Assembly (NCBI GenBank): GCA_905178155.1
Contig: CAJINV010000006.1
Span: 1,737,876-1,801,875, forward strand
Length of the DNA stretch: 64,000 bases
Reading direction: 5' to 3'
Source: Amoebophrya sp. A120
Lineage: Eukaryota; Protista; Dinoflagellata
A program made the translations under genes and the position numbers. The stretch's first letter is position 1. The number at the start of each line of letters is the position of its first letter. The notes beneath the pieces were generated by a model, which did no database searches, was not told the DNA's origin, and was given only the letters and a program-made list of their open reading frames with translations. Positions 1,428 to 60,361 of the stretch are shown piece by piece.

Positions 1428-4400
1428 ATGGCCTCCGCAATTCTGAATGATTTTTTGAATGGACCGCTCCGGTCTGTTTCCGAAGCGTTGTTGGCGCCCC
1501 AGCCCTTCTACGGCCGCAAGTACTACTACGACGAGTGCAAATGGGGTAAGGCGACCAGCAACGGGCAGTTTTACCAGCAGTGCAACGAGCGGGCGGGTCC
1601 GGAGCCAAGGTTCGTGCCCACTATGCATTGCAAATATCGATCTGGGTCTGGAAAGCTGTAACTTGTGATGCTGCACTTGCATACTGCAAAAATCTGTATT
1701 GCATGAACATCAAAAGAGGTTCAGTTTTTGCCACGGCGAGGGCGCATTTCTCATGCAGTGTAGGCATCAGGAAGCTGTCACAAAATCTGTGATGCTGGGG
1801 CATGCATCACAGCCGTCAGGAGTCACGCAAAACGTGCATGACAAACCTTGCATCCTTCCAGAAATCCAGGGATATTTGCATTTGATACCCACCGACAAGG
1901 ACGAAGCGACGTTTTTCAAGAAGATCAATGGAGACATATGCAATTGGTGGAAAAGTACAACCGTTTACTAGCTATAAAAAATCGCATGACAAATTCCCTC
2001 AGCATGAAGAGCGAAATTTGTAATGCGGATTTATTACCGTGAGAGTGCAAGTTGTAATTATTATGCATGTCTACGATTAGGATTACTACGAAAACGAATG
2101 CGGTGCTTTTGCATTGCATAAGACAAAGTGTCCAACGACCGGAAACTCGCGCTGCTGATGGAGCCTGGCTATGAATTGCAAGAGTATCGTACTAGTATAA
2201 GTCGCATGACAAACTTCGATTTCCTCAGCATGAGAAGTAAAATTTGTAATGCGGATTCAACTCAACATGGAAATTTGTAATGCACAAATGCGATTAGTAC
2301 GAGTGCGATACCTTTGCAATGCATACTGGCCAGGGCGACGCGGTCGAGGCGGCGGCGAAACTGGGGCTGAAGCTCCCAAAGCACGTGTCCGCGGCGTACT
2401 ATCACGACCGGGTGGAGGAGTACGCCAGCGCGCTGCGGTCCAGCGTGACCAGCCACAACGGGAAGAATTCCCGGCTGTACCCGCCAACAGCGGGGATGCA
2501 GGACGCGGGAAACTTGGAGCAGCCCATCTTGGTGGTGGACGAGATCTCTCCTACGATTGAATCCACGGACCTCATGGACTTTAACGCGAGCGTCGATTCT
2601 GGGTATTTCTGCAAGTCCCCCAACCGCATCGCCGACGACGTTATCTATCCGGAGGCTAACGGCGCGGGTAACGACAGCACGACCACCTCATGGCTAGCGC
2701 AGAAACTGCACAAGGTGAAGAATTTCTTCCACCCGGCCGGCAGCAAAGCGGTCGCTTTTCACCCGACGTTCACGTTTCGCGACCCGATCCCGGGGCTGCT
2801 CCACGTCAAGATGCGGGATCTCACCACTGGCGCAGTGCACTGGGATCAAATTTTATGCATTGCGAAAGTTTCGTACTCCTACTCCTAGTGTTCGTATTGC
2901 AATACAACTTAGGTCAGCATGACAAATGGAATTTCTCATGCTGATTTAGCTTGAGGAAAATATTTGTCTTGCATGACTGCGATCAGAAGCACGAGTGCGA
3001 TACTTTTGCACACGATAAATTTTCAAGATGAACTACTCCACGGTGCTGGACGAAACCACGGAACCACTTGCGCCGGGGGAACACGAAGAAGCCGGCGAAA
3101 GCGATCTGCCACCGCTGACCGGAAACAACCGCCCCTTCTATCCGGTTTATCAAATGCAAATACGTCTGGATCTGGAACCGATTGTTGAGGTTTGTGCTGC
3201 TGCGTCTGCTTGACACAGAAGGCGTGGTATGGAACGCCTAGCATCACAGGTTTCGAGACGGTGTCCCGATGCCTGATCCGCATGACAAGCGCCTTCTTTC
3301 GGCGAGAGGACAAAAAGCTCCTTTTACTGTCCAAGCATGACAGATTTTTGTGTGAAGATCCAAGTATGCATCACAAGTTCGCATCCTTCCAGACCCAGAC
3401 ATTTTTGCATTTGATACGGTTTGCCCGGACGCGAAATCCCTGAACACCTTTCACCAGTTATCAAAATGAAAAATCCCCCCTCCCCATATTGAAACGGAAA
3501 CTTCTGTTGCTGGATTTGTGTACACAAGTCAGCCCTGTCTTGCAGCGAGGCACTACAGGCAAAGCCTCAGCCTGCGTAGGGGTGTTTTGTGGTAGGCTCT
3601 TGGCACCAGAGAGGCCTGCCATGTAGGTGAAACAGCATTACAAATCGCCCCCATAAGGCGGCGGATTCTTTGGGTTTGCCTTCTTGCAAGACAGATGTGA
3701 TTTGTGACCTCAAATCCGCAACGCAAATTTTTGGACACATTCTTTTTCGATATGGGGAGGGGGGATTTTTCCTCTCAATACCAGTACGAGATCACGTTCA
3801 AACAGGTGAAACCCTACCGGCGCCAGTACACGGACGCACAGTGTTATGGGGGTGTCAGGATTGAAATCGTCAAAGTTGAAATAGTTTGCCATGCATGAAT
3901 TGGATGCCAGTCGGAACCCAGTTTCCAAGTGGCGCACGACAAATTCCGGCGTTACCGCAATCCAGTTTGTCATGCTGTTTAGGCAAAGAGGACTGATTTT
4001 CTCATGCTACTTTAGCAGCTCAACCTCTAACCCCAAACAGGCTTACAATCGGTCTCACTTGGTTGCTCTGCAACACACGTAAGTCGCGTCATGCATTTTA
4101 TGCATGACAAATCATTTCAACTTTGTCGATTTCAAACCTGACGCTTCCATAAGTGTCGGCAAGCGGCGCTGAAGCAGGAGTTTCAAAATTACCATGCTGA
4201 AATATGAAATGCAAAAGCATCGTACTCGTACTAATCGCATTTTTCCTGCATTACAAATTTTTTTCTCAAGTTCAATCCGCATTACAAATTTCATTTCTCA
4301 TGCTGGGGAAATTTGTGATGCGATCCATACTAGTACGATACTTTTGCAGTGCATATGAAAAACCGAAAGCTGATGAGGATGCTGTCGAGGATAAAGTTTC

Positions 4401-6233
4401 TCGCGGGCCGGCGGTGCCGTGGCTTCTGGACTCCCGCAGGAGCAAGGGTGCAAATAAAACCTCCTCGTCCGACGATGAAGATGTTGACGCAAAGTCTTTC
4501 TTGGAGCTTAGCAAGGAGAAGTTGTTGTTCCCCCACGACGGAGGATACCCAGCCGCGACAGATACTTCTAGCAGGACGGGGACATCGGGCGGTAGAACTT
4601 CTCCAACTGCTTTGCTACCTCCTTCCGCGGGCGGCGGAAAACTACATCAAAATGGAAGTAACCACAGCGCGGCTGCCGGCTTCGGAGAAGATGAAGATGA
4701 CAAAATGAATCTCGGTACAACTAAAACAACATCAATTACAACTCCGCCTGATGTTGAAATGAAATACGGCAATAAAGGCAAACCAGCACGAATACAGCAA
4801 GAAGAACATCAGCCAGAGCTCGTCCAGCAGCCCGGGCAGGGCTTGGTCGTCGTTGAAAATGGGTTCTACAAAATCGGAAGATTTCTGTTTGGTAGACGAC
4901 CAGGAGGCGGGGACGAGCAGATAATGAAAACTGCACTCGACGATGGCAACAACTCGGTTGGCGGGGACGAAGTTGTAACTGCGAATGAAAAGACGAGTTT
5001 TGAAAATAGCACTAGAAGAAATAATACAACCGATGTTCTTGCACCACTTCCATCATCGGCTGCATCTTCTTCAGCCACGTCCTCTACTTCTAAATCATCT
5101 TCCCGCCCACCACCCGAAGTCGATTCGTTCTTCCTGGTTCCGTCGGAAAGGAAAAACCAAATCTTGCGCAACGCGGGACGGAATATCCAGCTTTTGGCGC
5201 CGCCGGGGGCACCTCCGACGGTGAACTTCGCGACAGCACCTCCTCTCGCGGGGGACAAAAAAACCGCTTTCGGCGTTTTCCAGAACGTGCTCGACTTGAG
5301 CGGGAAGCTCACGGAGGGCATGTATCATATGTAAAAACGTCCCCACCCCATAGTCAACTTGGGAACTTAGCAACACAAATCCAGAAGTTTTGAGAGCCAC
5401 GCATGACAAGCTGCAGTCCGTAGTGTAGTGCATGTCAGCAAGGACAACCGCATCACAAATCCATCTGCTTATGATCCTGTTTTCTGCATTACAAATTCCA
5501 GAGCGCGATTGGAAATGCCCCTCATCATGGAGATGCGCATTACAAACCTTCTTGTAATCGCAAAGCTGCATGACAACTATGGGGTGGGGATGTTTTTACT
5601 CACGATAGCATGGCCGGAACAGCCGGGGGAGGGGGCGGGGTCAATGGCGAAGATCTCGAGGATATGGATTGCAACTGTGTCTGAATCTGGAAGAGTGCAA
5701 CTTGTGATGCTGCATTTGGATTCTAGAAAAATCTGTGTTGCAGCATGAGCAGCAATGGGAATGTAATTTTTGCTACGTAGAGAGCATTTTTTGTCATGCG
5801 GAATAGGCATCAACATCAAGAAGCCCGGAAAAAATCTGTGATTCCAGGGCATGCGTCACAGACCGTGTTTATAAAAGTTTCGTTCCATGTCTATTTCGCA
5901 TCACAAAGTATCCAGACCCAGACGTACTATTTGCATTGTCGATACAGGAGACCTGCGGAGAAAAGGGGGGTTGGACCAGTGACGCCAATGAGTATACGGA
6001 CTTAGTCGGCCGGGTGCTGCTATCCTGTGCAAAAGTATCTGATAGATACTCGTATTGCAATCATGCATTACAAAGTTCCTTTTTTTAAAAGGTAAATCCG
6101 CATTACAAATTTCACTTCTCATGCTGCGGAAATTTGTAATGCATTTATACGAGTACGATACAGCTTTTGCACTGCATAGCTGCTCACGGAAGCGCATTCC
6201 ACCGCCCTTCCCTTCGATCACACCATGATGTGA
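1428..6233 (+). CDS. Gene 1: hypothetical protein split by 11 TAT..ATA introner elements; Cys-containing N-terminal part and a low-complexity middle exon
   Basis: ATG 1428 (MASAILNDFLNG). Removing the elements at 1622-1887, 1937-2120, 2170-2325, 2854-3017, 3148-3416, 3459-3780, 3845-4151, 4203-4355, 5323-5607, 5663-5944 and 6021-6178, each plus one 5-nt TSD, gives one open frame (..RFVPT|DKDEATFF..NGD|KVSND..EPG|QGDAV..) to TGA 6231-6233. No family recognised. Confidence 0.85.
1622..1887. mobile_element. Introner family B representative (about 230-330 bp; TIR TAT-N5-GCAAAWATGTCTGGGTCTGGAA)
   Basis: Starts TATGCATTGCAAATATCGATCTGGGTCTGGAA and ends GATATTTGCATTTGATA; TSD CCCAC at 1617-1621 and 1888-1892. 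Many further copies, e.g. 3148-3416, 5663-5944, 48672-48934. Confidence 0.92.
3459..3780. mobile_element. Introner family C representative (about 285-330 bp; TIR TAT..GAAAAATCCCCCCTCCCCATAT)
   Basis: TSD CCAGT; ends ATATGGGGAGGGGGATTTTTCCTCTCAATA. Other copies at 10166-10481, 10520-10832, 17558-17880 and several between 42.8 and 58.8 kb. Confidence 0.92.
3845..4151. mobile_element. Introner family E representative (about 305 bp; TIR TATGGRRGTGTCAGGATTGAAATCGTCAAAGTTGAAA)
   Basis: TSD AGTGT; ~37-bp TIR. Other copies at 15377-15683, ~18149-18456, ~23802-24148 and ~58892-59202. Confidence 0.92.
5323..5607. mobile_element. Introner family G representative (TIR TATC..GTAAAAACGTCCCCAC)
   Basis: TSD GCATG; ends GTGGGGATGTTTTTACTCACGATA. 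Other copies at 22626-22930, 26856-27150, 49994-50300, ~52864-53176 and 56614-57041. Confidence 0.9.
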
Positions 6234-6235
6234 AA

Positions 6236-6471
6236 TATGGCGTTCTCAACTGTTACATTCTCAACTGTTACATGAATTTGTGACGCAAGACTGGCAAAAG
6301 TGAAAGGAGGAAGATTGCGCCTTTTGCATTACAAGCCTGGCGCAGATTCAGATGCTGTCTAGCCCTTGCGAAATTTGTCATGCGAAGCAGCTCGATCATC
6401 TGCCGGCTTAAGGTGCTTTTGCATCACAAATCCATGTAACGGTTGAGAATGTAACGTTTGAGAACGCCATG
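6236..6471. mobile_element. Family H introner copy in the 3' flank of gene 1, without an intact TSD
   Basis: Starts TATGGCGTTCTCAACTGTTACA 2 nt after the stop and ends GAGAACGCCATG instead of ..CCATA; flanks TGAAA and GGCTA do not match. Confidence 0.75.
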
Positions 6472-7963: not shown

Positions 7964-10900
7964 ATGCCGGAGCAGCTGCAGCAGCAGTCTTCCGCAGCGT
8001 CCAGTGCTGCTGCTGCGCATCACCAAAACAGCAATCCAAATACACCCTATATCCCGGAGAGCGAGACGCCGCGGTTCAAGAATCTCGGGTTTCAGGGGCT
8101 GTTGCAGTTGGCGCAGAAGGCAAATCCGGTGCTGCTCGACACTGCGGTTACGAGGATAAGTGACGGGGATGGGTACGACGTTTTGCTCGAGGACGGTTTC
8201 GATATCCTTTGTAAAAGTATTGTACCCGTATTGCAATCATGCATTACAAATCTTTTTCTTAAGGTAAATCAGCACTACAAATTTTATTTCTCATGCTGAG
8301 GTGGACGAAATTTGTAATGCATCTATCGCAGTTGTACAAATTTGTCTTTGTCATGCGACTTTTCCTCTACTAGTACGATTTACTTTTGCAATGCATATTC
8401 GACCGGACCCTACAACACTCCACAAGCCAGCTTATCAGCGAGGGTATTAGTCGCGTAGTTGTAGTTCAACATCACTTCACCATGCGTTTGCATTTATTTT
8501 TTCATATTTTATTTCAACGTAAAGTCGTTTGTCATGCAGTTGCAGATTGAACATCAACACTTATACATGGCAAAAGTATCGTACTCGTAGTAACAATTGC
8601 AATACAAATTAGCTCAGCATGACAAAGGAAATTTCTCATGCTGATTTAGCTTGAAAAAGAAATTTGTCTTGCATGGCTGCGATTTTTCTTGCTAAAATCA
8701 CTTTAAAATTCTGATCAGGTGACCCTTCCTCCCCGAAGTCTGCTTCGGGTACCAAGAAGAAGCTCCGACACGGAAAATCCTCTGGTGACGTCGGGAAGTT
8801 GGAACGGCAAGTATCCCAACTCGAGGCGAAGCAGAAAGCCACCGACAAGAAGCTGAAGGAAGAAAAACGACGAGCGGTGGCGCTGGAAAAAGAGTTGGCG
8901 AAACTGCGGGTGGACAAAACCGAATATGAGAATCAGCTGTTCCAGAAAACCATCGACCTGTCGGCGTTGAAGAAGGAACGAGAGCTGGACCGACGGGCTT
9001 TCGACGCGGACTGCAAGAAGAAAGAGGTGTTTCTGAAGAAGCTGCTGCTCATATGAAATTGCACAAGTCCCCGTCCCCCTCATTTGTATGGCATCAACAG
9101 CATTGCAAACACCAGCACAAGTGCACCCTGTGCATGACAAGTTCATGATGCGCCGATTGTACTACTGTTTGGATCATTTCCGGAATTTGTCATGCACGCG
9201 GTGAAACAAGGTAGCAAGTGGATTTGGGTTTTTGCATGACAAATGAGGGGGAGGGCGGGGAGTTGTGCAGTGCCATAGCTCACGAAGAAGGAAATTTTGA
9301 AGGACCTGAAATTGAAGATCCGCCCAAAAACCGCCTTATCCTGTGCAAAAGTATCGTACTTTCGTATTGCAATCATGCATTACAAATCTTTTTGTTAAGT
9401 CAAATCCGCATTACAAATTCTATTTCTCATCATGCTGAGGAAATAATTTGTAATGCATTTATACAAGAATCGGATAGGATACTTTTGCAGTGCATACGCC
9501 TCCTTGAAAGACGCCGGAGGGGTCCACATAGATGAGTTAGCACTGGAGCGCCGATATCAAGTGCAAAAATGTCTGGGTCTGGAAGTAGAATGCAAGTTTG
9601 TCATGCTTGTCACGCGTGGCTCGAGAATCTGTGTTGCATCGGCACGAAATGGCCCTCTTACCTGTCATGCAAAAACGCAGTTTGCCATGCGGAATACGCA
9701 AGACATTGCAGCCAAGATGAAATTTGTCAGGCATAGCTGCGTATTGCAGCGCATCTAGCATTCACTTGTAGCATTTGCATTACAAGTTTCCAGACCCAGA
9801 CACTTTTGCATTTGATAGCCGACCACTGTCCGCGTCGAAACCGGTGCCGCAGTTTTCCGATGGAAAGAACATACTAGAACGACTCCAGGGGGAGGACACG
9901 GAGAATCTATGAAAGTGCACAACCCCCCCTCCCCCTCATTTGTCATGGTGCAAAATTCCAAGTCCACCCTTTACCTGTTCGCACTGTTTGCATGACAGAT
10001 TCCGGCAGCACTACAATCCTCTAGGAATTTGTCATGCAAAAGTTGCATCTTTGCCAGCGCTTGTGTTGCCGTTCATGCAACACAAATGAGGGGGAGGGGG
10101 AGTTGTGTGCTCTCATAGAATCTCCTGTCCTTCTACAACTTGAAAGGAATCATGGGCACCGGCGATATCGTGAGGAAAAATCCTGCTCCCTCCCCATATC
10201 GAAAAAGAAATTTGTGTTGCTGTATTCGAGTACACAAATCGCTTTGTATTGCTAGAAGGCCAAGAGACGAAGCTGGTCCCTCTTTTGCAGGCAATTTGTC
10301 ATGCTGTTCCCGTTTCCAGTTGCTTCCTGTCATGCTGAAGACGCAAGGCTTTCCCGCGCCAGCCAGCACTACAATCCGCATCTCTTCCCTTCTAGCACGA
10401 CAAAGCTGATTTGTGGTCACAAATCCGCATCACAGATTTCCGTTTTGATATGGGGACGAGGCGGGATTTTTCTTCTTGATAGGCGAGGGGGTGACCTCCA
10501 CGAGACCACAGTCCGCGGCTATTGCAAGGAAAAACCCCCCTCCCCATAATGTCGAAAACGAAATTTGTGCTGCTGTAGTTGACTACACAAATCGACGTGT
10601 GTTGCTAGAAGGCCAAGACCCGCAGTTGTGGTCTCGTTTGCAGGTGGTTTATCATGCTGTTTCCCACTTCCAGCTGCCTCCTGTCATGCTGAAGATGCCA
10701 GGCTTTCCCCCGCCACCCAGCACTACAGTCCGCATCTTTTGCCTTCTAGCATGACAAAGCTGATTTGTGTACGCAAATCCAGCACGAGAAATTTCGTTTT
10801 GATATTGGGAGGGGGGATTTTTCTTCTTGAAAGCGGCGTCCCGGTCTTCCTACGCGACCGGCACCACGGGGGCTCTACTGAACAATAACCGCTACAGTGG

Positions 10901-13900
10901 CAGAGTGACCCTCCCCATGGCGGGAGGGGGCGTCGCGGTAGAGCAAAGTGATATTCATTGCAAATATGTCTGGGTGGTCTGGAAGGTTGCAACTTGTGAT
11001 GCTGTCTCTGCATTCTAAAAAAATCTGTATTGTATGACCAGCAAGTAGAGGGGTCCAGTTTGTGCTACGTGGAGAGAGCATTTCTCATGCGGAATAGGCA
11101 TCAGGAAGCCCTCCAAAAATCTGTGATGCTAGGTTGTGCAACATTACAGGCGTCACGGGTCATGTAAGATTTGCATCACACGTCTTGCATTCTTCCAGAC
11201 CTCCCAGGCAGTATTTGCATTCCATAAGTGAGGAAGAGCCACCACCACCGGTAAACCCCATGCCGCTGCAGGAGGCGTGGAGCCAGAGTGTGGGGAACGC
11301 AAAGTTATCAAATGCAAAGATGTCTGGATGTCTGGGCGGAGGTTGCGAGATCATTTGTCGTGCTAGTCGGGCATGACTCTGAGCTCTGTATTAATTCCGT
11401 GGCCGCAAAGAGCACGTCTTGCCTGTCATGTAAATAAAACGCAGTTTCTCATGCGGAGTTATTTGCAACTCAGAATCACGGAAAGAGTTGTCATGCTGGG
11501 CAGCGCATTACAGTGTGCTCACTATTCCCTTTCTTGCATCACAAGTTTCCATACCCAGGCAAAGGCATTTTTGCAATGCATAAAAGTCCTCATCCAACAA
11601 TAACCTTGGAACAAGCGGCGCGACCAGCAGCTCGTCGAGACCCGGTACGGGCCGCGGCGGGGGAAAGCAAGGCGGGAGTGGCGGCGGCCTGGCGGCGCTG
11701 AAGGGAGTAAATCTAAACATATGCATTGCAACAGTATCCGATACTAGTATACATAGATCGCATGACAAATTTCCTCAGCATGAGAAATAAAGATTTGTAA
11801 TGCGGATGGACCTTGAGAAAGAGATTTGCAATGCAGGAATGCGATTAGTACAACGAGTGTGGTGCTTTTGCAATGCATAAAACAAGGACGTGGACGATTT
11901 ACTGAATGAACAGGAGTATCCAGTGCAAGAAAAGGATCGTACTCGTATAAATGCATTAGAAATTATTTTCTCAGCATGAGAAATAAAATTTGTTATGCGG
12001 ATTGACCTTTAGAAAAAGATCTGTAATGCAAGGTTGGAATTACTACGAGTACGGTCGCGATGCTTTTGGATTTCATAAGGAGGAGCAAGGGGAGCCGGAC
12101 GACGAAACAAAAAAGCTATCCTGTGCAAAAGTATCGTACTCGTATTGCAATCATGCATTACAAATTTCCTTGTTAGGTCAAATCCGCATTACAAATTTTA
12201 TTTCTCATGCTGATGAAATTTGTAATGCATTTATACGAGTGCGATACTTTTGCAATGCATAAAAGCCACTCTTCAGCAATATCCTGTGCAAAGATAAAGA
12301 AAAGCATCGTACTCGTACGCAACTTCCCAGGAATGCATTACTACAAATCGCGATCTTCAGGTGAAACCGCATTACAAGAAATCTTAATGCTTCTCAGGCT
12401 CTACTAAATGTCATGCTATTCGTACTATGCGATACTTTATTTCCTTTTGCACTGCATAGGCAAAGACGACGTGCAATTTCTGGCAGAGGAGTTCAAGAAA
12501 CTGGACCAGCGGTTTGCCATCGCGAGCATCGACCGGCAGGAAATGGCAAAAATTCAGGCGGAGCTGGCAGTAAGCAGCGAGAAAGCGAGCGACTTGGAAT
12601 CGACTTGCAAGGCAGCGCGGGACTTGATATGCATTGCAGCTACGTCTGGGTCTGGAATAAACTTGTGATGCTAGGCTACGAGGAGTGACTGCTCTGTGAT
12701 TTTGTACAGCCAAGCATTATGAGAAATAAGATATACGTGTCGCGTCGTGTAGTTGCTCTTTCCGCATGACAAAGTGTGTTTTTGCGTGACAACAAGCAAA
12801 AGCATCTCTTCATCTTGGACACGACGCATCACAAACTCTTCAGTCATGCCAGACAAGCATGGCAAACAGTTGCATTCTACTTCCAGACCACCCAGACATA
12901 TTTGCATTGGATACTTGACGCAGAAATACCAAGTCGAAAAAACCAAATTGGAGGACGGCATGAAGAGAAGCAAATCGGTACCATCAAAATTTTTGTTTGT
13001 CATTGTCATGCGAACAACAAGAGTGCTAATATAGTGTCAATAACCTCTGTAGTCAACATCATGCGGTCTGTATTCACTACCAACACAAAAATTATTAGGT
13101 CGCCACCAAGTTGGCAGAGCGAGCGAACCTGGAGGACCAGCAAAATGACAGGGTACGGAAAACTATGAGAGTGTACAACTCGTACCCCTCCCTTTCATTT
13201 GTATGACATGAACAGCAACACAAACATAACTACACGTGGAGCCTGTGCATGACAAATTTATGTACCTACTGCTACTGTAGTAATGTTTGGGCTTCCAAAT
13301 AAATTTGTCATGCAAACAGTCCCACAACGCAGCGATTGGGTTCTGTTGATTTTGCATGGCAAATGAGGGCGAGGGGGGGTTGCGCACTCTCATAAAAACG
13401 GTGAGAAAACATGAAGACCACATTGCCTACCTTAAAAACCAGATGAAGGAAGCCAACGAGAAAAACGGAAAAGCTATAGCGAGAAAAAACTGTTTCACTG
13501 TGAACTTGTGATGCAGAAAATGGAACACAGAACTATTTGTCTTGCTACACGACCTGCAAGACATTGGATTTTCAAACGTGTTTTCGTCCCCTGGGAAGTG
13601 CGCGTGGCAAGTTTTCTTTGTCATGTAGGAGGAACTTGTGAAGCGAAACTCACAAAATGAAAATCGTCACAGTGAAACACTTTTTTCCCACGATAAAAGC
13701 GATCAAAGATCTACAGGCCGAGAACAGTAACCTGCGCAAGAAAAATATCGTACGAAAAAAGTTTGTCACAGTTACTAACTTGCAGGTTTTGCATTACAAA
13801 TTTTTTTAGCATCACAAGTTTTCCTTGTATTGCAGAAACACTAGGAAAATCCCCTATGAAGCTTGGCTGTGATGCATTTTTACGCATGACAGAAAATTTT

Positions 13901-15163: not shown

Positions 15164-16940
15164 TAGTTGATGAAACGGGAACGCGATCGCGAACGGACAG
15201 AGTGGTCTACTCGAGGACCGCTACAACTACAACTACATCGTCAATAAACCTTCTACTCACTGAATTTGTTGTTTTTCAACTACTTACTTTCATCAATCTT
15301 TATCTTTAATAGTGAACCACAACCAATACCAATTGCAAATTTTTCATCACAATCTTTTTACTATCTTTAGTGCAGATATGGAAGTGTCAGGATTGAAATC
15401 GTCAAAGTTGAAATAATTTGTGATGCATAAAATGCAACCCACAAAGTGCCTGCCTTGCAGAGTAGGCAAGGGAGGCACATTGCAAGGGGGGTAGAAATAG
15501 AGCTGCTAAAGTAGCATGACAGAAGGCGTCTTCCTTGTTACCCAAACAGCAATACAAACTGGATTTAAGCACCGCCAAAACTTGTCATGCGCCACTTGAA
15601 AACTGGGCTCCAACTGGCATCCATTTTATGCATGCCAAACTATTTCAACTCTGACGATTTGTTTCAAACCTGACACATCCATAGCAGAGCCACAAAAACC
15701 AATTGCAAATTTTTCATCACAATCTTTTACTACTTTGTTCACCAAAACTATCCGTACAGTACTTCTGAAGATCATGGTGCACAGACAGTGCCATGAAGAA
15801 GGCCGTTGATGTGCATGGAACACCAGCACCACCAGAGGCGAGCATTTAGACTGAATTTTAGACACAATAAGGAGAAATATACCTCCACTCAAGTAGAGCT
15901 ACCTTCAAGAAATAAAGTTTAGGCCACTTGATTTTCATTTTAGACAACTTTGACAGCGAGGAGAAGTGAAGTGCAGGATATCAGCAGTTTTTAGCTGTAC
16001 TAACAGACTGTGCGCGACGGAGGAGGTGCGGGGGGGAGAATGCATTTCGAACAAACGGGCAGGTGGACGAGAGCAAGTGCTATGAGATTCGGCAATATGG
16101 TCGTGCTCTCGACGACGTCCGGTAATTATGTTGCGCCTGTTTCTAGTACTCCGCGACTTGTTATATCCTTTGAAGACAACAAGAACAGAAGTACTTCTAG
16201 ACCCTGTATTTACACTACGTTGATTAGACCATTTTATTTTTATTAACTCAAGTTGGCATTGCCGTTGGACTTGGAGCACGACTGTGCGGCACCAGTACTA
16301 CACCGTTTGATGCAACAATACGGTCGTAATATCTACTTCGTGCTTGATTCATCATGTACAGATTGATACGTGAATAGAAGGTGACGAAAGAAGAGAAAGG
16401 TAAAAATGGGCTCAGCCACCTCGTGTTGATTGCAGTTGTTGACTAGTATCGATCTTTGATGAAGAGGACAAGCAAGAAGTTCTGCGACGTCGCGTGTCAT
16501 CTGGTTCATGACATCCCCATCAGAAAACAACGACCAATTGTTGTTTTCTTAGAAGATCTACACTAGGTCTTCAAAAAATACCAGAACGCCGAGAACGAGT
16601 GCAAGAAAAAATATAAGTGACTGTACTACTAGACCGCCGCGTGGCCTTCTAGTTGATGACGACCGAGGGCAAGAAGGGAGACCGTAGCTCTAGAATGCGT
16701 GGCTCGAGCGGGAATGAGGGACAAGAACTCGAGAGTAGATCTTGTAGTTCATCGTGGGTTATGTTTGTATTTCCTATCTTTAGGAAAGTGAACAAAGAGG
16801 ACTTCATCTGATACCCTGCAACTACTACAGCACGTCGACTAAGTTGTAGAAACCAAAAGCAAAACACAAGCAAGGAGAGGAACAACTAGACCCACTAGTC
16901 TTCGTCTTCAGGGGTCGTGGTCGCAAAAGAAGAAACCATC

Positions 16941-20377: not shown

Positions 20378-20465
20378 TTCTGCATCCGAGGAGCAAGCTG
20401 ATGTCAGGTTGCGTTTTTTGCAACGACAACTACATAATATCATCAGGTACGTCCGTCTTCACAGC

Positions 20466-50200: not shown

Positions 50201-53200
50201 GGAAGGGCCTCTCTACTTGGGGATGCGCATCACAAATGCTCCTCTGCTTGCCAATCTGCATGACAACTACTCTGGTGTGGGAACATTTTTCCTCAGGATG
50301 GAGGAACGGGCAGAGCGCCGACATCGACGAGCAAGCCCGGGACATGCTGATCTCCGAGTCCAGTGCGAACTGCAACATCAATTGCCAGTTCGATCCGCGG
50401 CCGTGGAAAACGTGCAAACTCGACACGGTGGATATCCAGAGGAAATTTCCCGTACACGTACAAATCAGGTCTCTGCATGACAAAGCTTGTCTTCCATCCT
50501 ACTTAGCATGACAAGTGGCATGCTCTAAGTTGGCAAAATTTGTGATGCATTTTGTACATGTGCGGGACATTTCCTGTGGATAGTGGACGCTACCTACGAA
50601 AAAGACCCACTACCCGTCGTGTACGCGAGCGTCCGCCTCCGGCCCAGGATCAGAGAGTTATCAAATGTAAAAATGTCTGGAAGAATCCGAATTTTGTTAT
50701 GCTGTTTTTGCATGACACAGAATGTCTGTCATGGAAGCCCTAGCATCACAGATTTTTAGAGGCCTTCCTGATGCCTATTCCGCACGACAAATGCCCTCCA
50801 CGCGTAGCACAAACCGGACTCCTCTTGCTGGTCATGCAATACAGAATTTTTGTAGAGTCCAAAAATAGCATCACAAGTTTCAACCTTCCAGATCCAGACA
50901 CTTTTGCAATCCATAAGAGTGGGTGCCAGACGATTGCTGTGGCGGTGAGTGGGTGTGGAACTGGAATCAGCACGGCCTATGCATTGCAAAAGCATCGTAC
51001 TAGTATAAATTGCAATACAAGTTTCCTTAGCATGAGAAATAGAATATGTCATGCGGATTTGCCTAAATAAAAAGATTTGGAATGCAAGACTTGCATTTAT
51101 ACGAGTGCGATGCTTTTGCACAGCATACGGGCCCTGGACCGACTACCAACCCATCCGGGACATCTCGGACTTTGCGAAGTCGCGGTTCAAATTATCAAAA
51201 GGAAAAATCCCCCGTCGCCATGTCGAAACGAAGTCTGTAATGCTGGATTTGCGTACACAAATCACATTGGTCTTGCTGGAGAAGATGACTGTAAGTCCAT
51301 ATCAAGTCGGAGTAGAGCGGTCATGGCCTAGGCACTTAGCATGAGAGACGTCTGCGCTGTAGGCCCAACAGCATCACAGACCGCCTGCATAATGCGGCGG
51401 CTGTCTGTGGAATTGCCTTCTTGCAAGATGACTGAGGCGATTTGTGGTCGCGAATCAGCATTGCAAATTTTCTGCTCCGTAGCTTTTTGATATGGGGAGG
51501 CGGGGTCTTTCCTCGCGATACAAATTTCAGGGCAGCGAAGCGGAGCAGTCTATCACTATTAAAGGAAAGGATAGAGACACCAAGATGCGGCTGGGCCGGT
51601 CCAAACCCACGGAGGGGTTTGGTTCTTCCTGGGAAAAGGTCCTATCCCAGAAAAAAAGATTGTAGCTGTAACTTTTTTGGCTGATTAGCATTACAAACCT
51701 GTCTGGCATGACAGCAGAAACCTGTCATGCGCAGATAGCATGTCAAAACGCGCTTGAATGAGAATGAACCTTGCAATGCATGTCCAGCATGACAGACGCA
51801 ATCATCTTACGTGTTGCGCATCACAAACTTACACTAACAATGTTTTTTTCCTGCATAGGTGCCCGTAAGCGACGAATACCCGGACGGGTGGCGGTACCGC
51901 GGGAAGGTCGGGGAGATGTTTATCAAAGTGAAAAATCCCCCCTCCCCATATCGAAAAGGATCGCCTCAGAGAATTTGTGATGCTGATTTGTGACCACAAA
52001 TCATGTCTGTCTTGCAAGAGAGCGACGGCATGGGCTCCGCCCTATTATGCAGGCGGTTTGTAATGCTGTTGGTCCTACACCATAGACGTGCCCCATGCTA
52101 AGCGCCTAGGCCAGAACCTCTCTCCATTGGCGTGGTATGGGCCTGCAGTCCTCTACTGCAAGACCAATCTGATTTGTGTACGCAAATCCAGCATTAGAAA
52201 TCTCGTTTTGATATGGGATGGGGGCTTTTTTCACTTTGATAATGTTGTTTCCGCGGCCCTCCAAAAATATGGCGGTAGACCTGCAGTTTATGGTCAAGAA
52301 CTCCGACGGCCACAAGATATCCTGTGCAAAAGTATCGTACTCGTATTGCAATCATGCATTGCAAATATTTTTCCTAAGGTAAACCAGCATTACAAATTTT
52401 ATTTCTCATGCTGAGGAAATCGAAATTTGTAATGCATTTATACAAGTACGATGCTTTTGCACTGCATACAAGACCACCGTGAAAAATATCGTGGTGCCGG
52501 GGCGCAACGAGAAGCTGCAGCAGAGGTTTTTGCCGTTTTTCCCCACCGACTACTTCAAAAAAGTCCAAGACATCTATGACAGTGCACAACTCCAACCCCC
52601 CCCCCTCATTTGTATGGCATGAACAGCAATATAACCACCAGCACACATGGAGCCTGTGCATGACAAATTCATGTGCCTAATGTAGTACTATTTGGGCTTC
52701 CGGAATTTGTCATGCAAACAGTGCCACAAGGCAGCGAGAGCGACTGGATTTGGGATTTTGCGTGACAAATGAGGGGGAGGGGGAGTTGTGCACTGTCATA
52801 ATATCGGCGGGGTGCGGAAAGTCATCCAGAAAGCGTGGCGGATGAAGAACGAGATCAACCCGGTATCCTATGTAAAAACGTCCCCACAACTTCCGCCCCA
52901 GAGTTGTCATGCAGATTTGCAATGACAGGAACATTTGTGATGCGCATACCCATGATAGTCATCTCATTGCCATTTCCAATTGTGTTTTGAAATTTGTAAT
53001 GTTGTAAACAGGATGAGTAGATAGCTTTGTGATGCGGCTGTCCTTGCTAACCTGAACTACACCACGGACTGTAGCGCGTCATGCGTGACTCCCAAAACTT
53101 CTGGATTTGTGTTGCGCACTGCCCAAAAATCAGTGACTCCGGGACGAAGGTGGGGACCACGTTTTTCCACAGGATACCCGGACCGTGGAATTTTTCGGAA

Positions 53201-56200
53201 CGCCATTGTGGAATTCGTGAACCGGAAGAAGATACGCATGGCAAAAGCATCGCAATCATAGTGGGAACAATTGCATTACAAATTTGCGCAGCATGAAGAA
53301 TTGAATTTCTCATGCGGATTCGCGCACAAAGATAGATCTGTCATGCGTGCTTGCAATTGATTCCACCTGTCCTGAATGCGATGCTTTTGCACAGGATAGA
53401 AGGCCAAGGTGCTCTACTGGGACCCGGTCCACGAGGAGGCCGTCTTGCAGGACTTGGCTACCTATGGATTGCAAATACAGAATTTGTGTTGCTGAAGCGC
53501 GCATCGCAGAAGGTGTCCGCTTGTACGGCATGATAACAGCATGAGAAATTTTGCGAGGCTTAGGTTTGCAGATTCACTCCTCGTGATAAAACGCATGACA
53601 AAGAACTTCACAGCATGACAAAAAAAACTAGCGACTCGTATTCACGCATCACAGATCTTGTAGTCCTTCAAAGCTCGCATGACAAAGACCGTCGATATTT
53701 GCAACGCATACTACCTCGCGCGTGTTCTACCAGCAGCGACCGGAGGTGCACTTTCACGCCCCGAGGGCTAAGGACAACTACACCTGCCACGAGGGGATCC
53801 GCGTGCAGACGCGGTTATGCACTGCAAATATGTCTGGGTTTGGAAGGATGCAGCTTGTCATGCTAAATTTGGATCATGCAAAAATTTGTGTTGCATGATT
53901 ACCAAAAACTGTCCATTTTTGACCAAGTTGGGAGTGAGTTTCTCTTTCTCATGCAGGATAGGCATGATACAGATCATCTCACAGAATCTGTCATGCTAGA
54001 TCCTGCATTGCAGACCTCATGTGTCATGTGGAACCTGCATGAGAAGTCTTGTATTCTTCCACACCCAGACATATTTGTACTTGATACCGGTTGCACGAGA
54101 TCAAAACCGTGACCGCGCCGTCGCAGGAGGAGTGCGCGGTGCAGTGTGTATCCTGTGCAAAAGTACCGTACTCGTATAAGGAATGCCAGACTAGCATGAC
54201 AAATCTGGTTTCTTAGGTAATTTAGCATGACAAATTATTAATTATTAATTTTTCATGCTGAGCTAATTTGTAATGCAGTTTATACTAGTACGATGCTTTA
54301 GCTTTTGCAGTGCATAGTGTGACAAGCAGACCAACTGCGAGAGTTTTGACTTTTTCAAAGGCGAGGAAAAGTGGCGAACGTCGAAGCAAATGAACTGTCA
54401 TCTCTACTCGAAGAACGGGCACACGAAAGAGCTGCTCTTGCGGGACAGGTATCAAGTGCAAACGTGCAGCCTGGGTCTGGAGGAAAACTGTGATGCCGGT
54501 TTGTTAATGGTAGGCGCACTGCAACTTCTATACGCGGCGAAGCATGACAAAATTTTCAAAATCCTATCACACCCAGATCCATGTTTGCAATGCATAACAG
54601 GCAGGGGTTGCGGAAGGAAAAAATCCATTTTGGAAGACGCAAGGCGGACATTAACATGGACTTGGAAAATATCAAACAAAAAAAGTTCGTCACGATCATT
54701 CATGCGCATTTTTGCAATACAAAACTTTCTGTCATGCGTAAAAATGCATCACAGCCAAGCTTCGCGAGGGATCTCCCTAGCGTTTGTGCAAGACAAGGAC
54801 AAGCTTTGATGCTAAAAGTTTTTGTAATGCAAAACCTGCAAGTTAGTGACATGACTGTGACAAACTTTTTTCTCTTCATAGAAAAGGTGCTGCCAAACTA
54901 CAAGCAGAGCAAGCACAGCAACGAGTATTCCCGGATGGGAATTTAGGCAAAGAAAAAACTGTTTCACTGTCAACTTGTAATGCAGAAAATGCATCTTAGA
55001 AGTGTTTGTCTTGCTACACATGCAAGACACTGGATTTTTAGCTGTGTTTTCCCATTGGAACCTCGCATGGCAAATTGTCTCTGTCATGCGGAACAAACTT
55101 GTGATGCGAAACTTGCAAAATCCTTACAGTGAAACACTTTTATCCTGTGATAGAATTCCGTTCCTCGAAGCACCTCTGAAGCCCGACAAAGAGCAGGAGA
55201 AGACTTTCATTTTCCAAATCCCGTGCGTATAAACTGCAAAGGTATCGTACTAGTATAAATTGCAATTATACAAATTAGCTCAGCAGTACAAATTGAATTT
55301 GTAATGCGGATTTCACTTAAGAAAAAGATTTGTAAATGCATAAAAGCAATTAGTACGAGTACGATACTTTTGCACTGGATAGTGCGAGGCGTGCATCAAC
55401 TCCTGGGCCCGACACGGCATGGCGGTCACGGAAACCAAGGATTTCAACCAGGATATCGCAAGGGAAAATCCCGCCTCCCCATATCGAAAAGGTATGTCTC
55501 AGAAAATTTGTAATGCTGATTTGTGACCACAGATCGTCTCTGTCTTGCAAGAACGCGGTCGGTTTGTAATGCTGTTTGCCCTACAGCCTAGACGTTTGCC
55601 ATGGTCAGCGACTAGCCCAAAACATCTCGTCTGCTCACTCTTACTATAGGCATGCAGTCCTCTCAAGCAAGACAAATCTGACTTGTGTACGCAAGTCCAG
55701 CATTGGAAGCCTCGTTTTGTTGATATGGGGAGGAGGGACTTTTCCTTTTGATACAAGACCTGGACCCCGACAGCGCCGGCGATTTTTCCAAAAGCGTCCA
55801 CATGGGCACCGGCGCCACCAGGGGACTGAACGGCGCGCGAGACCGGCTGTGGTGCAGAAACGGGAACGGTGCCTTGGTCAATAACCGATGCTCGGTGCAG
55901 GAGCTGGGGCACGCACGGCGGTATCGAATGCAAATGTATGTCTGCTGGGTCTGCTGGTGAAGACTGTTGCAACTTGTGATGTGCTACCTTTGGACTGTTC
56001 TATTAGAACAGTCCAAAGGTAATTTTTATCAAATAAAAATCTGTATCGCCTGAGCAGAAAGAAGAACAGTCCAGTTTTTGCTACGTGGACGACGAGGAGC
56101 ATTTCTCATGCCCGGATGGACATCAAGGCGGCTTCTTCAAAACGTCTGTGATGCTGGGGCCTACGTTACAGATCGATCATGCGTCATGCAAGATGTGCAT

Positions 56201-59200
56201 GGCAATAAACGTAAACCTTGTATCCTTCGTGCAGACGCAGATCCAGACACAATTTGCACTGCATAGGGGGAACCGGCAGGCAAAATGGTATACGAAGGGC
56301 ACGTATCAACTGCAAAAATGTCTGGGTCTGGAAACTTGTAATGCTGCGTTGGGAATAGTGAATGCTCTGTAATGCACAGGCAAGCATGCGAAATATCTGC
56401 GCACCTTTGTGTTGCGTTTTTCGCATGACAAACTGCGTTTTTGCATGACAGGCAAAAGGGTCTCTTCTTGGACACGCATCACAAACTTTTTGGTCATGCC
56501 AGACAAGCATGACAAGTCTCGCAATCTTCCAGACCCAGACATATTTGCAATCCATAGCACGTTGGATTACGAGGAACAGGACGAGAAGGGCCGCATGGTG
56601 AGAAAGGAAGCCATATCCCGTGTAAAAACATCCCCACCCCAGAGTCAAGATAAGTGGCCACATTATACCATAGTTATTTCCGTACTTCACCTACGTCATT
56701 CTCTCCTTTTTAACTTCAACAAAGTTCGAAACTTCTCTGTGCTTTAAATTTGGTCTTTTCCAGTACATAAAACACCCCAGAGTCAAGATGGCGACTTTTT
56801 GCTACACAAGTCAACAAGTTTAGGCTGTTCTGCATGACAGATTTGAGCTCGTAAGTAGGTAGTCCTGTTCAGCTAGTGTGTTCGTATTACAAATCGACAA
56901 CCCTATCCTGCTTGGAGCATGACAAACTCCCAGGTAATATTAGAAAACGCTCCAGCTCTGCATGGGGCTGCGCATGAGAAATGTTCTAGGCTCGCAGATT
57001 TGCATGACAAGTCTGGGGCGGGAGCGTTTTTGCGGAGCATAAACCAAAGTGATTGACAGAGTGCCAGATGAAGGCATGTACACCGAGCCCGCAGTTGAGG
57101 CGAAAGACGGGCGCCACATGTATCCACAGTACTTCTAAATCATTTCCCGTACTGCGCACACAGTGACAGCAACAGCTACAGCTGCGGTTTCTACTGCATC
57201 ACAAAACTTGCCTTCGATCCTAGAGTCAGCATGACAAGTCGTGTTACACTCTAGTACGTCATGGCGAACAAGTTTGTCATGCACTTTGCACATCGTGTAG
57301 TACAACGGGAAAATAAAGATAAATTTGTATTGCATAACATGGTACAGGACCACATTACGCCGTACAGGAAGTATCTTTGGGGCTACGGCCGTGTAGAGAT
57401 GGGTCTTAACGAGGACGCACCGGAGTACTGGCACCATTGCGACCGGAAAAAACCGCACACCGGAATCTACCCAGAGTAAACTTCCCGTACGCGTACAAAG
57501 CTGGTTTCTGCATGACAAACTTTTCTTCCAATTCTACTCAGCATGGCAAGTGACATGCTCCAACTTGGTAAAATTTGTCATGCATTTTGTACATGTACTA
57601 CAGGAAATTTGTATTGCATAGAATTATCAACAGGAACAGTAGCTCCGCTGTCATCAACAATTCCATGATGCAGGAAATTTGCCGACCCGCCTGGGAGCGG
57701 CCCGGTGTGGCGAACGGAGTCGATATGTGCCACTCACGGTGTGTGTTCGAGTTGCAGGGAAACGGGAAGGAGACATCCTTGGTGGATGGAAGCAAAAACG
57801 AGAAGCCGGGGGGTATCGACCAGGATATTTCCTGCCGCAAAATGTGCTTGGACCATGCGATTACGCCCTACAACCCACGGTGGGACGATTTGGACGAAAA
57901 CATGAAGGCGGTGCTGATGAAGGATCAGTACGTGGAGTCTCCGGAGGGAACGAACACGGGGAGGAACAGCAACCCCGGAGCCATCAAGCTCCGGCCGTAC
58001 CTGAACAAGAAGTGCAACGCCATCTACGACTTTTTCTGCAGAAAAGACGCTCCGGGGAGGTCCCACTGGGAGAAGGGGAACCCGCCACCGCACCCAAAAG
58101 ACAAGGACAAACCCCCGTCCAAGTGGCATCACGGGAGGTGGCCCTTCACGCACGACAGCTACGAGTGCATGGACCTCCACGACCCCATTCGCGACGAGCC
58201 GAACCCCATCGACCCCAGCTGCTGTGGCGGCTGGGCCGAGCCGTTCTCGAACAACCACGGGCGGTACAGCAGCTGGTCGCCGTTTCCGAAGATTTTCTGC
58301 AACCAGTTCTACCGCACCGATATGGCGTTCGGAAAACGATTTGGGCAGGAACTGGGCGCAATCGACAAGGAGCACGACCCGGTGGAGACGCCCAACGTGC
58401 CGGAGGGCGAGTTGAAAGCGGTCGACCCGGTGACCGGAGACACGACTACGTTCTCCGGCTTCAACAAGCATCGCCAGCGGGGGCACTGCGAGGTGCCGGA
58501 GCGTGGGAAGTATCATGAGGAAAAATCCCCCCTCCCAATAATCAGGCGGAGGTTTGTGTAGCATGATTTGTGATCACAAATCACATTGTCATGCTAGAAG
58601 GGAAGAGATGCGGAGTGTAGTGCTGGCTGGCGTGGGAATAAACCTTTGCGTCTTCAACATAACAAAAAACAACTAAAAGTGGGACACCGCATGACAAATT
58701 GCCCGCAAACGAGGCCGCGACTGTGTCTCTTGGCCTTCTAGCAAGACAAGTCGATCTGTGTACGCAGATCCAGCACCACAAATATCCTTTTCGACATGTT
58801 GGGGAGGGGGAATTTTTCCTCACAATAGAAAGCCGATGGATATCATCTACCCCTGGGAAGACCACCACGGGGATACGGTCGGGAAGCGAAATATGGATGT
58901 GTCAGGATCGAAATCGTCAAAGTTGAAATGATTTGCCATGCATAAAATGCAAGACATGAAGCACCTGTCTTGCCGGGATGGCAAGTGAGGCAGATTGTGA
59001 GCCTATTTAGGGTTTGGGATAGAGCTGCTAAAAGAGCATGACGAAAGCAGTCTTCTGTGCCCAAACAGCATGACAAATTGGATTCCGGTGCTCCGAAAAT
59101 TTGTCATGCGCCGCTTAAAAATTAGGCTTCCAACTGGTATCCATTTTATGCATGACAAATCATTTCAAGAACTTTGTCGCTTTCAAACCTGACGCTTCCA

Positions 59201-60361
59201 TACGAAACAAACGATACACCATGGACCCAGATATGAATCGCAAAAGCATCGTACAACTATTAGTATTTGCATTACAAATTAGCTCAGCATGGCAAATGGA
59301 ATTTGTCATGCTGTTTTACCTTGGGATGGAGATTTGTAATGCATAACTGCAAGAATTACTACGAGTGCGATACTTTTGCAGAGGATACCAGAGTCCTGTC
59401 TACAAATGGGGCATTCAGTGTTCAAGGAAATGGAGGACGCGTATTACGATTTCGCGAGGCTGCAGTCCGGGCACCAGGGGTCCGGCCGCATGTTCGCGTG
59501 GGACGCGGTAGATAAAAGGGCGTACCACGGAGGCATAAGAGATGTTCGCGGCATGCGGTGGCATGAAAACAATACGAAGGTGACCATGGAGCAGTGCCGC
59601 ATGCCGGTCGTCATGGTAACGAAGCACATGGGCGATCAGGAAGCTAGCTCCTTTGACGTGTCTCCCATGAAGCCTGCCTGCCGGTATGCGAAGAAAAAGC
59701 TGTTTCACGGTTTTTACACATTGTGTTGCAGGCATCGCAAGACAGACAAGTTCTGTCATGCCGAAGAAGATGCTCAGGAGCCTAGAGTTTCATACGTGTT
59801 TATTTCCCTACCGATTTTTGCATTGCAAGTTTTCTCTGTCATGCAAGGCAAATGCAAATTTGTGATGCTGAGTTGTTCATTACAGATGTGTAACCTCTGC
59901 AACACTTTTCTCCTTTGATAGCCGGGTGCACATCGCCAGTAAGGATTTCGAAGATAAGGACCCGAACGACACAGATACGTACTTGCAGCAGTCGGAAGCC
60001 CTGGGCGTATCAACTGCAAATATGTCTGGGTCTGGAAGGGGACAAGTTTGCCATGCACATTTTCCATGATCCACGATGTCTGTTATGTATGCCCTAGCAT
60101 CACAGATTTTGTGAGCGCTTATCGATGCGCACCCCGCATGAGAAATGCCCGATCCACGTAGCCAAATTTGGCTGCTCTTGCTGCTCATGCAATACAGATT
60201 TTTTTAGCATCCACATGCAGCATCACAAGTTGCACTGTTCCAGACCCAGACATTTTTGCAATGCATAGCGCGCCCTTCACGACGAGACAAACAACGGAAC
60301 CGAGGGTGTGGAGGGCATCCCAGAGGACGGGGCGGACCTACCGGAAGGAGTCTCGGTCTGA
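38201..60361 (+). CDS. Gene 7: very large Cys/Trp-rich protein with at least two PAN/apple-like domains; about 58 introners and one canonical intron; start uncertain
   Basis: Frame traced by hand without a stop from ATG 38201 to TGA 60359-60361; GT-AG intron 46728-46975. The spliced motifs ECSKKCCGNRFCKSFSYLKNKTRKNNCLLFK and EECAVQCDKQTNCESFDFFKGEEKWRTSKQMNCHLYSK match the PAN pattern C-x3-C-x5-C-x-SF-x-Y/F..C-x-L. No signal peptide seen at the provisional start. Confidence 0.8.
38797..39977. mobile_element. Long (1.18 kb) introner-like TIR element with a truncated right end
   Basis: Starts TATGCCTGGG; 38812-38857 is an imperfect inverted repeat of 39935-39977; TSD GGTGT/GGTGA; internal AAAATTCACC repeats at 39435-39480; no credible ORF. 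Confidence 0.75.
46728..46975 (+). other. Canonical GT-AG intron
   Basis: GTATAG..CCTACAG, phase 0, joins WGDTEM to YDLQHFRPG. Confidence 0.8.
47641..48390. mobile_element. 750-bp insert nested in a family D introner (47605-48581); Helentron/HINE-like architecture
   Basis: Interrupts the family D TIR in its TTT run (CCCCCTCATT|..|TTTGTCATGC). It carries a 13-bp tandem array and ends in a long hairpin at 48343-48391. Confidence 0.7.
47691..47839. repeat. Tandem array, about 11 copies of GACAGGTGACCTT
   Basis: Directly visible; each unit contains the palindrome AGGT-G-ACCT. Confidence 0.95.
49706..49934. mobile_element. Introner family D representative (about 210-245 bp; TIR TATGAGAGTGCACAACTCCCCCTCCCCCTCATTTGT)
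   Basis: TSD GTCCA/CTCCA. Other copies at 9052-9277, ~9908, ~13164, 14486, ~41743, ~43856 and ~52576. Confidence 0.92.
50433..50582. mobile_element. Introner family I representative (TIR TATCCASAGGAAATKTCCCG)
   Basis: TSD GTGGA; related copies at ~41214, 57121 and ~57468. Confidence 0.85.

Follow-up and report, generated by a model that had tools for sequence, protein, structure and literature searches.

Introner elements of Amoebophrya sp. A120: loss of element plus 5 nt from transcripts, three near-invariant bases and a probable relaxed spliceosomal route

The closest described relatives of the elements considered here come from the same organism, the marine parasitic dinoflagellate Amoebophrya sp. 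A120, whose introner elements were reported by Farhat et al. 2021 (PMC7789003) as inverted repeats starting with TAT, followed by 7 nt and an A-run, with direct repeats of 3-5 nt (5 bp in the legend of Fig. S19), RNA support and a hairpin. In the available portions of that account, the splice sites are called variable, their border position is given as unknown with no clear signature, and the mechanism is left open. The window analysed here, a whole stretch of 64,000 nt (contig CAJINV010000006.1, positions 1,737,876 to 1,801,875, forward strand, assembly GCA_905178155.1), holds six genes carrying elements with terminal inverted repeats (TIRs). These elements show the published features (TAT plus 7 variable nt plus an A-run, direct repeat, families, removal from RNA), and two exons are 100% identical to P0002 and P0008, database proteins labelled Amoebophrya sp. 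A120. They are thus the published introners, as a sequence-only reading of the window had proposed, and the elements and their non-canonical ends were already known for this genome. Added here are a single geometry of removal (element plus 5 nt, or +5), a single cut register, and three strand-specific invariant bases. No published account of the border position or the route of removal was found in the literature searched, whose coverage excluded most subscription journals.

Comparable introns have been described elsewhere. In Fritillaria borealis (Henriet 2019, as summarized in the review PMC11282704; PMC13326754), introns that resemble MITEs (transposable elements of the miniature inverted-repeat type), with TIRs and target-site duplications (TSDs) and without GT-AG ends, are presented as removed by an adapted U2-type spliceosome. 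According to the portion of the review available, AG-AC and AG-AT ends dominate there and U1 is conserved; in Amoebophrya, by contrast, the first base and the last four bases of the intron appear to be free target DNA, and +2/+3 is U-A. Introners of dinoflagellates and algae (Roy et al. 10.1101/2020.10.14.339549; PMC12130899) are also TIR elements that draw part of a splice site from the TSD, some of them bidirectionally. Class 12 of Polarella, with its 5-nt TSD, builds the donor from the last TSD base and the first element base, the same register as in A120. As these sources present them, such introners need a target G at +1 and an AG, which limits their sites, whereas in A120 any 5-mer serves. 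Introns of Giardia, Trichomonas and Spironucleus have a fused branch point and 3' site, to which the geometry predicted here would be comparable; unlike the elements, they are described as immobile and as retaining an extended branch consensus together with a final AG (PMC6679479). The nonconventional introns of euglenids (PMC11282704) are alike in TIR-paired ends, TSD-like repeats, offset cuts, a likely MITE origin and an unknown machinery; they differ in their CAG/CTG pairing at +4-6/-8-6, pyrimidine/purine junctions and circular, non-lariat products, and no U+2/A+3 donor is described for them in the text available. In the window, +4 to +6 read T, S and a variable base, and the junction bases are free, unlike the euglenid pattern.

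Elements can be recognized by a scan for TAT..ATA with an exact 5-bp flanking duplication and a TIR match of at least 9/15, which gave 79 matches in the window against 0-2 in each of 20 Markov shuffles. The matched termini served as a library for curation, yielding 126 element pairs, and a 127th element (38797-39992) was found through the database protein P0005. The sequence-only reading counted about 123 elements in seven genes; the seven genes become six, since P0008 (16941-28600) and P0005 (38200-60361) each span a region as a single protein. Four of the 126 were dropped before any window counts (18739, 29771 and 31184, in canonical introns, and 15377, non-coding), and 122 were analysed. 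Apart from a single 977-nt case, curated elements are 129-428 nt long, and element sequence makes up 29,033 of the 64,000 bases. There are 12 multi-copy families and 8 singletons; all genes lie on the + strand, and all 12 families occur in both orientations relative to them. The same reading took TAT..ATA with a 5-bp TSD as an exact rule, which is right as to the pattern and too strict as to its exactness: 84 of the 122 duplications are perfect and 38 imperfect, seven elements begin with TAC or TAG, four end in something other than ATA (AAA, ATG twice, ACC), and two further ends, AGC and ATC, can be deduced from database proteins. In a second assembly (contigs JACKZZ01..., 130 loci, 256 elements), 180 of the 256 have a perfect duplication of 5 bp and 50 one with a single mismatch; lengths of 3, 4 and 6-9 bp gave 0-7, and 2 bp gave 23.

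With TIRs, a TSD of fixed length, short non-coding interiors, many copies and two orientations, the elements show features of MITEs and are non-autonomous copies of a TIR transposon. An autonomous partner with a transposase was not seen in the window or in the 130 loci, where the longest closed element is 753 nt, and no DDE transposase or integrase with a 5-bp stagger was found in these data; an A120 TIR family with integrase-like homology is mentioned by Gozashti 2025 (PMC12130899). The motif GCA[ATC][GTC]ACA occurs, in both directions, in 448 copies inside 125 of 126 elements and in 24 copies outside, and is a candidate transposase- or RNA-binding site common to the families.

Evidence for removal comes from gap sums and database proteins rather than from single-junction reads. 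Contigs of runs X1 and X3 (two samples of one study, their RNA nature guessed, presumably cDNA-based) map to the window in pieces with no other letters between. The unmatched gaps of 268, 177, 45 and 1234 nt equal the element+5 prediction exactly, and no other value from +2 to +8 fits (30 elements and two GT-AG introns summed), so that transcripts do drop element+5. The 271 nt at 1622-1892 that had been offered as an example agree, being an element of 266 nt (1622-1887) plus 5. Missing GT-AG introns, and a depth of zero in an intergenic bin where run X5 has coverage, make these contigs behave as transcripts. X5 extends over intergenic DNA, and its pieces pass from exons into elements; the DNA therefore retains the elements. 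For this reason excision at the DNA level, as with the internal eliminated sequences of ciliates, is very improbable despite the transposon ends: no element-free DNA copy appeared, the contigs showing presence and not absence, and the contigs free of elements are also free of GT-AG introns and hence transcripts. Ribozyme self-splicing is just as improbable, strong as the RNA fold is, since interiors 129-1200 nt long and unrelated in sequence function in either orientation, something impossible for a catalytic fold, and an Rfam search of positions 25000-64000 returned no match.

Database proteins extend this to individual joints. Within the spans of P0002, P0005 and P0008, 98 of 104 joints are individually present in those proteins; of the six missing, four reflect a database model that reads into an element, one an element in a canonical intron and one a different end. 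Removing element+5 restores the frame as the sequence-only reading had claimed: 11 joints yield a stop-free frame of 734 aa, 21 joints one of 647 aa, 5 joints one of 1292 aa and 55 joints one of about 2085 aa. For gene 1, an added length (k) of 5 is the only value among 0-10 that yields a full-length frame. For gene 2, k=8 also gives a nearly full frame, in an analysis that placed a canonical intron slightly wrongly, and in the second assembly the test is weak, 14 of 15 triplets being open at both k=2 and k=5. The element+5 model of gene 2 stays colinear with the ortholog from strain A25 where P0002 diverges. P0002 (at element 14206) and P0008 (at element 28393) run into elements and end in element-derived sequence, and their C-termini look mis-annotated. 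In the raw RNA run X8, all 99 partial reads match a single element end (18739-18772) with a single foreign flank, and the downstream flank is also in X3; this seems to be an abundant transcript from another locus that retains the element end, with PCR duplicates possible. A hairpin with a direct repeat is a known substrate for template switching by reverse transcriptase (PMC8240250, as far as its available text goes), and the presumed cDNA basis of X1 and X3 would allow for it. Joints made by such artefacts, or by pseudogenes, are nevertheless extremely improbable: frames are open across 55 joints and colinear with intact orthologs, removal also takes place at repeat-free sites, the register is fixed, and full-length contigs miss every element together with the GT-AG introns. 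Taken together, the data support a MITE-like origin for the elements and their status as genuine introns that are removed with precision, in a genome where GT-AG introns occur too.

The position of the cuts within the duplication can be read wherever a mismatch between the two repeat copies alters a residue, as the database protein then shows which base was kept. All 17 informative sites (in P0002, P0005 and P0008) permit c=4, where the cut follows the fourth repeat base. The downstream base is retained at six sites, all at position 5, which excludes c=5; eleven at positions 1-4 keep the upstream base, and two of these, at position 4, exclude c<4. Neither left nor right normalisation could produce this pattern. 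Independent support comes from the 3' UTR element 6236, where a contig piece resumes at 6476, implying that at least 4 upstream repeat bases are kept, from the ortholog P0004 (L594), and from the homologs P0006 (Q239) and P0001 (A1264). The intron would then be N+TAT...ATA+4 nt (N-TAT...ATA-NNNN), an assignment well supported by these comparisons. Stop-codon logic proved useless for fixing the register, all six registers giving open frames. Terminal dinucleotides of the 122 elements in this register form 51 classes, with 2 GT-AG and 3 AT-AC, so that the proposed lack of GT-AG, GC-AG or AT-AC ends holds for most elements and not for these. Use of cryptic canonical sites was rejected, as GT/GC-AG or AT-AC pairs are available, in any register, in a minority of elements. 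The candidate G+TAT..ATA+G intron at 29771 was dropped as well: intron 29770-30224 opens with the G+TAT of element 29771-29906, which thus begins a longer GT-AG intron.

Three elements (6236, 26856 and 38797) are removed despite little or no duplication, and all three appear to lack a real one, the cases of 26856 and 38797 each being read from a single database protein. At 26856, P0008 resumes 4 nt past the AGC that ends at 27147, with A at -7, and a decoy ATA 3 nt further is ignored; the 5' partner is uncertain, a small upstream exon being triplicated. Intron 38796..39996 has no duplication (GGTGT/AGAAC), adjoins a 43-nt exon duplication and is given in one of two equivalent registers. Because removal persists with decayed duplications and broken ends, the signal that is read is neither the duplication nor the pairing of the termini.

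In the deduced register, T+2 and A+3 are present in 122/122 elements of the window and 199/199 of the second assembly (321/321 pooled), and A at -7 in 122/122 and 197/199 (319/321 pooled), and the pairing partners of these three bases vary. The three elements removed without duplication keep N-TA and A-7. Orientation was assigned by a codon model (114 right and 2 wrong of 126 on the training window); 199 elements of the second assembly were oriented, and 57 of the 256 were excluded because their strand score was 4 or less or their duplication had over 2 mismatches. Pooled, the TA pair shows 0 changes at the 5' end and 8 at the 3' end (p=0.008), and TIR position 3 shows 10 and 2 (p=0.04); the interaction of end and position, pooled, has p=0.0007. 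Because elements insert in both orientations, this asymmetry acts on RNA. The core contacts of the spliceosome include U+2, A+3 and the branch A. The canonical donors of the window read GTA in 8 of 9, in agreement with N-TA-Y. AG at the last two intron bases is found in 18/122 (p=3e-4) and 24/199 (p=0.013) elements against a background of 6-7%, an enrichment of about 2-fold, as expected if an AG pocket still helps. By a post hoc observation, both exceptions to A-7 have an in-register AG and one of them is a perfect GT-AG intron in another register. All 321 thus carry the U+2 and purine +3 of a U2-type donor, whereas GT(GC)/AG ends are wanting (GT-AG in 2/122); the elements are not standard U2 introns by membership, yet they likely work like them. 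U12-type introns have a long conserved RTATCCTT donor and a TCCTTAAC branch site; here positions from +5 onward are variable, although one family end reads N-TATCCTG. Minor snRNAs are reported absent in A120 in the portions available of PMC7789003. In Table S4 of that paper, the top non-canonical classes of A120 are all N-T donors, which is consistent, may reflect aligner bias and is not counted as independent support. For strain A25, all nine top non-canonical classes in the same table start with TT and the repeats with TTA; with such repeats, an element of another kind would again have U at +2 and A at +3.

In folding predictions for 121 elements, the inner stem (TIR positions 10-15) is paired in 94% and the three terminal pairs form in 69%, with a median z of -6 against 8 composition shuffles for each element. 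Pairing at TIR positions 4-7 is limited to 48-67 of 123 elements. Stem and ends are offset by 1-5 nt in 10 out of 122, where the frame still follows TA and A. On these predictions, the most fitting role of the stem is to bring the ends together, and that of the bases to fix the cuts, and the hairpin probably helps removal. The sequence-only reading had posited a separate excision system beside the spliceosome that reads paired termini in place of splice signals. GT-AG introns do coexist with the elements, but pairing as the signal and a machinery apart do not stand as stated, given that the ends can be unpaired and the stem displaced, and that conservation is strand-specific and lies where a spliceosomal donor and a nearby branch point would be; the idea survives as a contribution of the hairpin and as the main rival discussed below.

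The explanation we favour, with a probability of roughly 0.6, is a relaxed U2-type spliceosome, aided by the hairpin, that branches at A-7 and cuts a fixed 6 nt downstream without G+1 or a final AG. An element, as the flanks show, inserts in either orientation with duplication of 5 bp (p1-p5), and the net loss, as the transcripts show, is element+5. The cuts would fall between p4 and p5 in both copies, making the intron p5+TAT...ATA+p1-p4, in line with the register sites. As the TIR is palindromic, either end could give the U-A donor and the other the branch A of ATA, so that orientation would be irrelevant. Stem 10-15 is predicted to join the ends and to replace recognition driven by U1/U2AF. 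The geometry would always take +5, so only elements that duplicate 5 bp would be tolerated in coding exons, the duplication being required for a clean protein and not for the cut. Mobilisation may be supplied in trans, the likely enzyme being an integrase or a DDE transposase that cuts with a stagger of 5 bp. A120 is reported, in the parts available of PMC7789003, to retain U2, U4, U5, U6 and 83 of 89 spliceosomal proteins, and a constant spacing from branch to 3' site and paired intron interiors are described in Giardia and Trichomonas (PMC6679479).

Several points weigh against this explanation. The asymmetry has p=0.17 in the second assembly alone, and the search pattern fixed one end of many elements. 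A-7 has its two exceptions there, a good U2 branch consensus is missing around it, and A at -7 is inconsistent among the six canonical acceptors that were inspected; its branch role would follow from position and conservation alone, and the lariat is a prediction. G at +1 shows no enrichment (90/321), and selection for it was not seen. Of 104 non-AG acceptors, 50 skip an AG within 8 nt downstream, unlike a normal spliceosome, and there is therefore no scanning for AG. No single element pins both cuts, a uniform register being an assumption consistent with the 17 sites, and locus L063 hints that other registers occur. The labelled database proteins derive from BLAT transcript alignments and may share RNA data with X1 and X3 (for P0005 no origin is given). 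U1 was not found in A120, at least in the parts of PMC7789003 available.

A protein nuclease could also read U-A and A. An endonuclease and ligase independent of the spliceosome, maybe a domesticated transposase or TIR-binding protein, could read the hairpin and cut 1 nt before TAT and 4 nt after ATA, which we consider unlikely though it is the main rival. The strong predicted hairpin, the 51 end classes without a G+1 preference, the skipped AGs and the missing U1 would all suit it. So would the euglenid introns with their TIRs, offset cuts and circular products (as reviewed in PMC11282704), and the cut at 26856 tracks the stem-aligned end rather than the nearby ATA. It accounts less well for the conservation of base identity and strand rather than of pairing, for invariant bases that fall at spliceosomal +2/+3 and equal the GTA of host donors, and for an AG enrichment confined to the acceptor slot. 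Stem shifts of 1-5 nt leave the cuts in place and, judging from sequence, exons are arbitrary, so no bulge-helix-bulge motif is possible. More doubtful still is that the elements are handled separately by a specialised second spliceosome or by a snRNP of their own (with variant U2/U6, or with U1 replaced), the lariat chemistry being unchanged. The canonical introns of the window are strictly GT-AG and the elements are not, and the supplement legends of PMC7789003 name several variants of U2 and U4 in A120; yet the donor consensus is common to both intron types, the elements can grade into GT-AG introns (27688, 54450, L063, 29770), and no minor-spliceosome snRNAs are reported in that source, so far as it is available. 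The relaxed U2-type spliceosome remains our preferred explanation. The six genes, with nine ordinary GT-AG introns among them, are listed in Table 1.

Table 1. Genes, elements and canonical introns of the window (positions in the 64,000-nt window).
Feature	Positions	Strand	Remarks
Gene 1	1428..6471	+	734 aa; family unassigned; 11 elements in coding sequence, one in the 3' UTR
Gene 1 elements	1622-1887, 1937-2120, 2170-2325, 2854-3017, 3148-3416, 3459-3780, 3845-4151, 4203-4355	+	frame, transcript gaps
Gene 1 elements (cont.)	5323-5607, 5663-5944, 6021-6178, 6236-6471	+	transcript gaps of 268 and 177 nt fit +5
3' UTR element of gene 1	6236..6471	+	ATG end, decayed duplication TGAAA/GGCTA, removed as +5 (X1, X3 contigs)
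Gene 2	7964..15163	+	647 aa, coiled coil, 21 elements; orthologs in other Amoebophrya
Gene 2 elements	8203-8397, 9052-9277, 9337-9496, 9555-9817, 9908-10117, 10166-10481, 10520-10832, 10952-11226	+	
Gene 2 elements (cont.)	11306-11582, 11720-11879, 11917-12077, 12117-12261, 12280-12458, 12628-12913, 13164-13394	+	
Gene 2 elements (cont.)	13475-13695, 13746-13951, 13986-14136, 14206-14463, 14486-14722, 14777-15061	+	
Gene 2 GT-AG introns	8444-8718, 12978-13098	+	
Non-coding element	15377..15683	+	perfect 5-bp duplication; excluded from splice statistics
Gene 3 (P0008)	16941..28602	+	single protein
Gene 3 elements	16981-17136, 17257-17509, 17558-17880, 17950-18092, 18150-18456, 20485-20864, 20900-21048, 21090-21304, 21381-21653	+	
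Gene 3 elements (cont.)	21686-21913, 21982-22154, 22193-22347, 22373-22517, 22626-22930, 22977-23127, 23174-23436, 23802-24148	+	
Gene 3 elements (cont.)	24247-24408, 24482-24733, 26856-27147, 27471-27627, 27688-27853, 27899-28058, 28093-28300, 28393-28544	+	
Gene 3 GT-AG introns	18552-20446, 23535-23778, 27204-27339	+	18552-20446 contains element 18739-19002
Element 26856	26856..27151	+	3' TIR aligned ungapped ends AGC at 27147; no duplication
Gene 4	29638..31490	+	YBL028C_N ribosome-biogenesis family; elements 30603-30755, 30819-31081; exon structure inferred from reading frame
Gene 4 GT-AG introns	29770-30224, 30342-30585, 31147-31337	+	31147-31337 contains element 31184-31330
Gene 5	32447..37075	+	1292 aa, low complexity; frame evidence only
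Gene 5 elements	32672-32816, 32986-33130, 34159-34319, 35385-35513, 36684-36828	+	
Gene 6 (P0005)	38200..60361	+	2147-aa PAN-domain protein; start approximate
Gene 6 elements	38237-38395, 38446-38671, 38797-39992, then 55 more, 40358-40505 to 60008-60267 (including 40995-41127)	+	
Gene 6 GT-AG intron	46728-46975	+	
1.2-kb intron in gene 6	38796..39996	+	T+TAT donor, 3' end ATC+AGAA, A at -7; from P0005

The genes themselves show further features. The product of gene 6 is cysteine-rich, with homologs only at 44-56% identity, and might serve the parasite at its surface or in adhesion. Exon ends are duplicated beside elements or in long introns in four places (18494-18734/20180-20431, 29728-29769/29914-29955, 38753-38795/39981-40023 and 24979-25048/26089-26158/26812-26855), one of them leaving a duplicated peptide in P0005, which suggests that the upstream exon was copied by repair or aborted transposition at element ends. 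P0008 implies an extra non-canonical intron from 24817 to 25023, 26133 or 26833, without recognisable TIRs; in the GT-donor register all three candidate ends have A at -7 and no AG, and this is possibly the decayed remnant of an old element. Elements or introns also contain secondary insertions or repeats of about 1 kb (47605-48581, 38797-39992, about 19003-20130, 25060-25900 and 62000-63000), among them a tandem array (47691-47842) and a palindromic array (25174-25628), and no transposase was recognised in them. Upstream of gene 1, at 572-921, there are short direct repeats of 31-41 nt.

The register offers a simple rule for annotation, under which gene 2 regains colinearity with its A25 ortholog. 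On a broader view, which we hold at even odds, the A120 spliceosome would have given up G+1 and the terminal AG, and an intron would consist of U+2, A+3, a branch A and a hairpin, with a 6-nt ruler setting the 3' site. The TAT/ATA palindrome would then encode a whole intron in either orientation and in any target, and a MITE with a 5-bp stagger would be harmless anywhere in a gene, the host splicing code and the transposon footprint matching exactly. Should a lariat link base +1 and the A at -7, this code would rank with the barest splice codes known. It would provide a natural test of what the active site of the spliceosome needs, and would explain how MITEs could spread to tens of thousands of genic copies.

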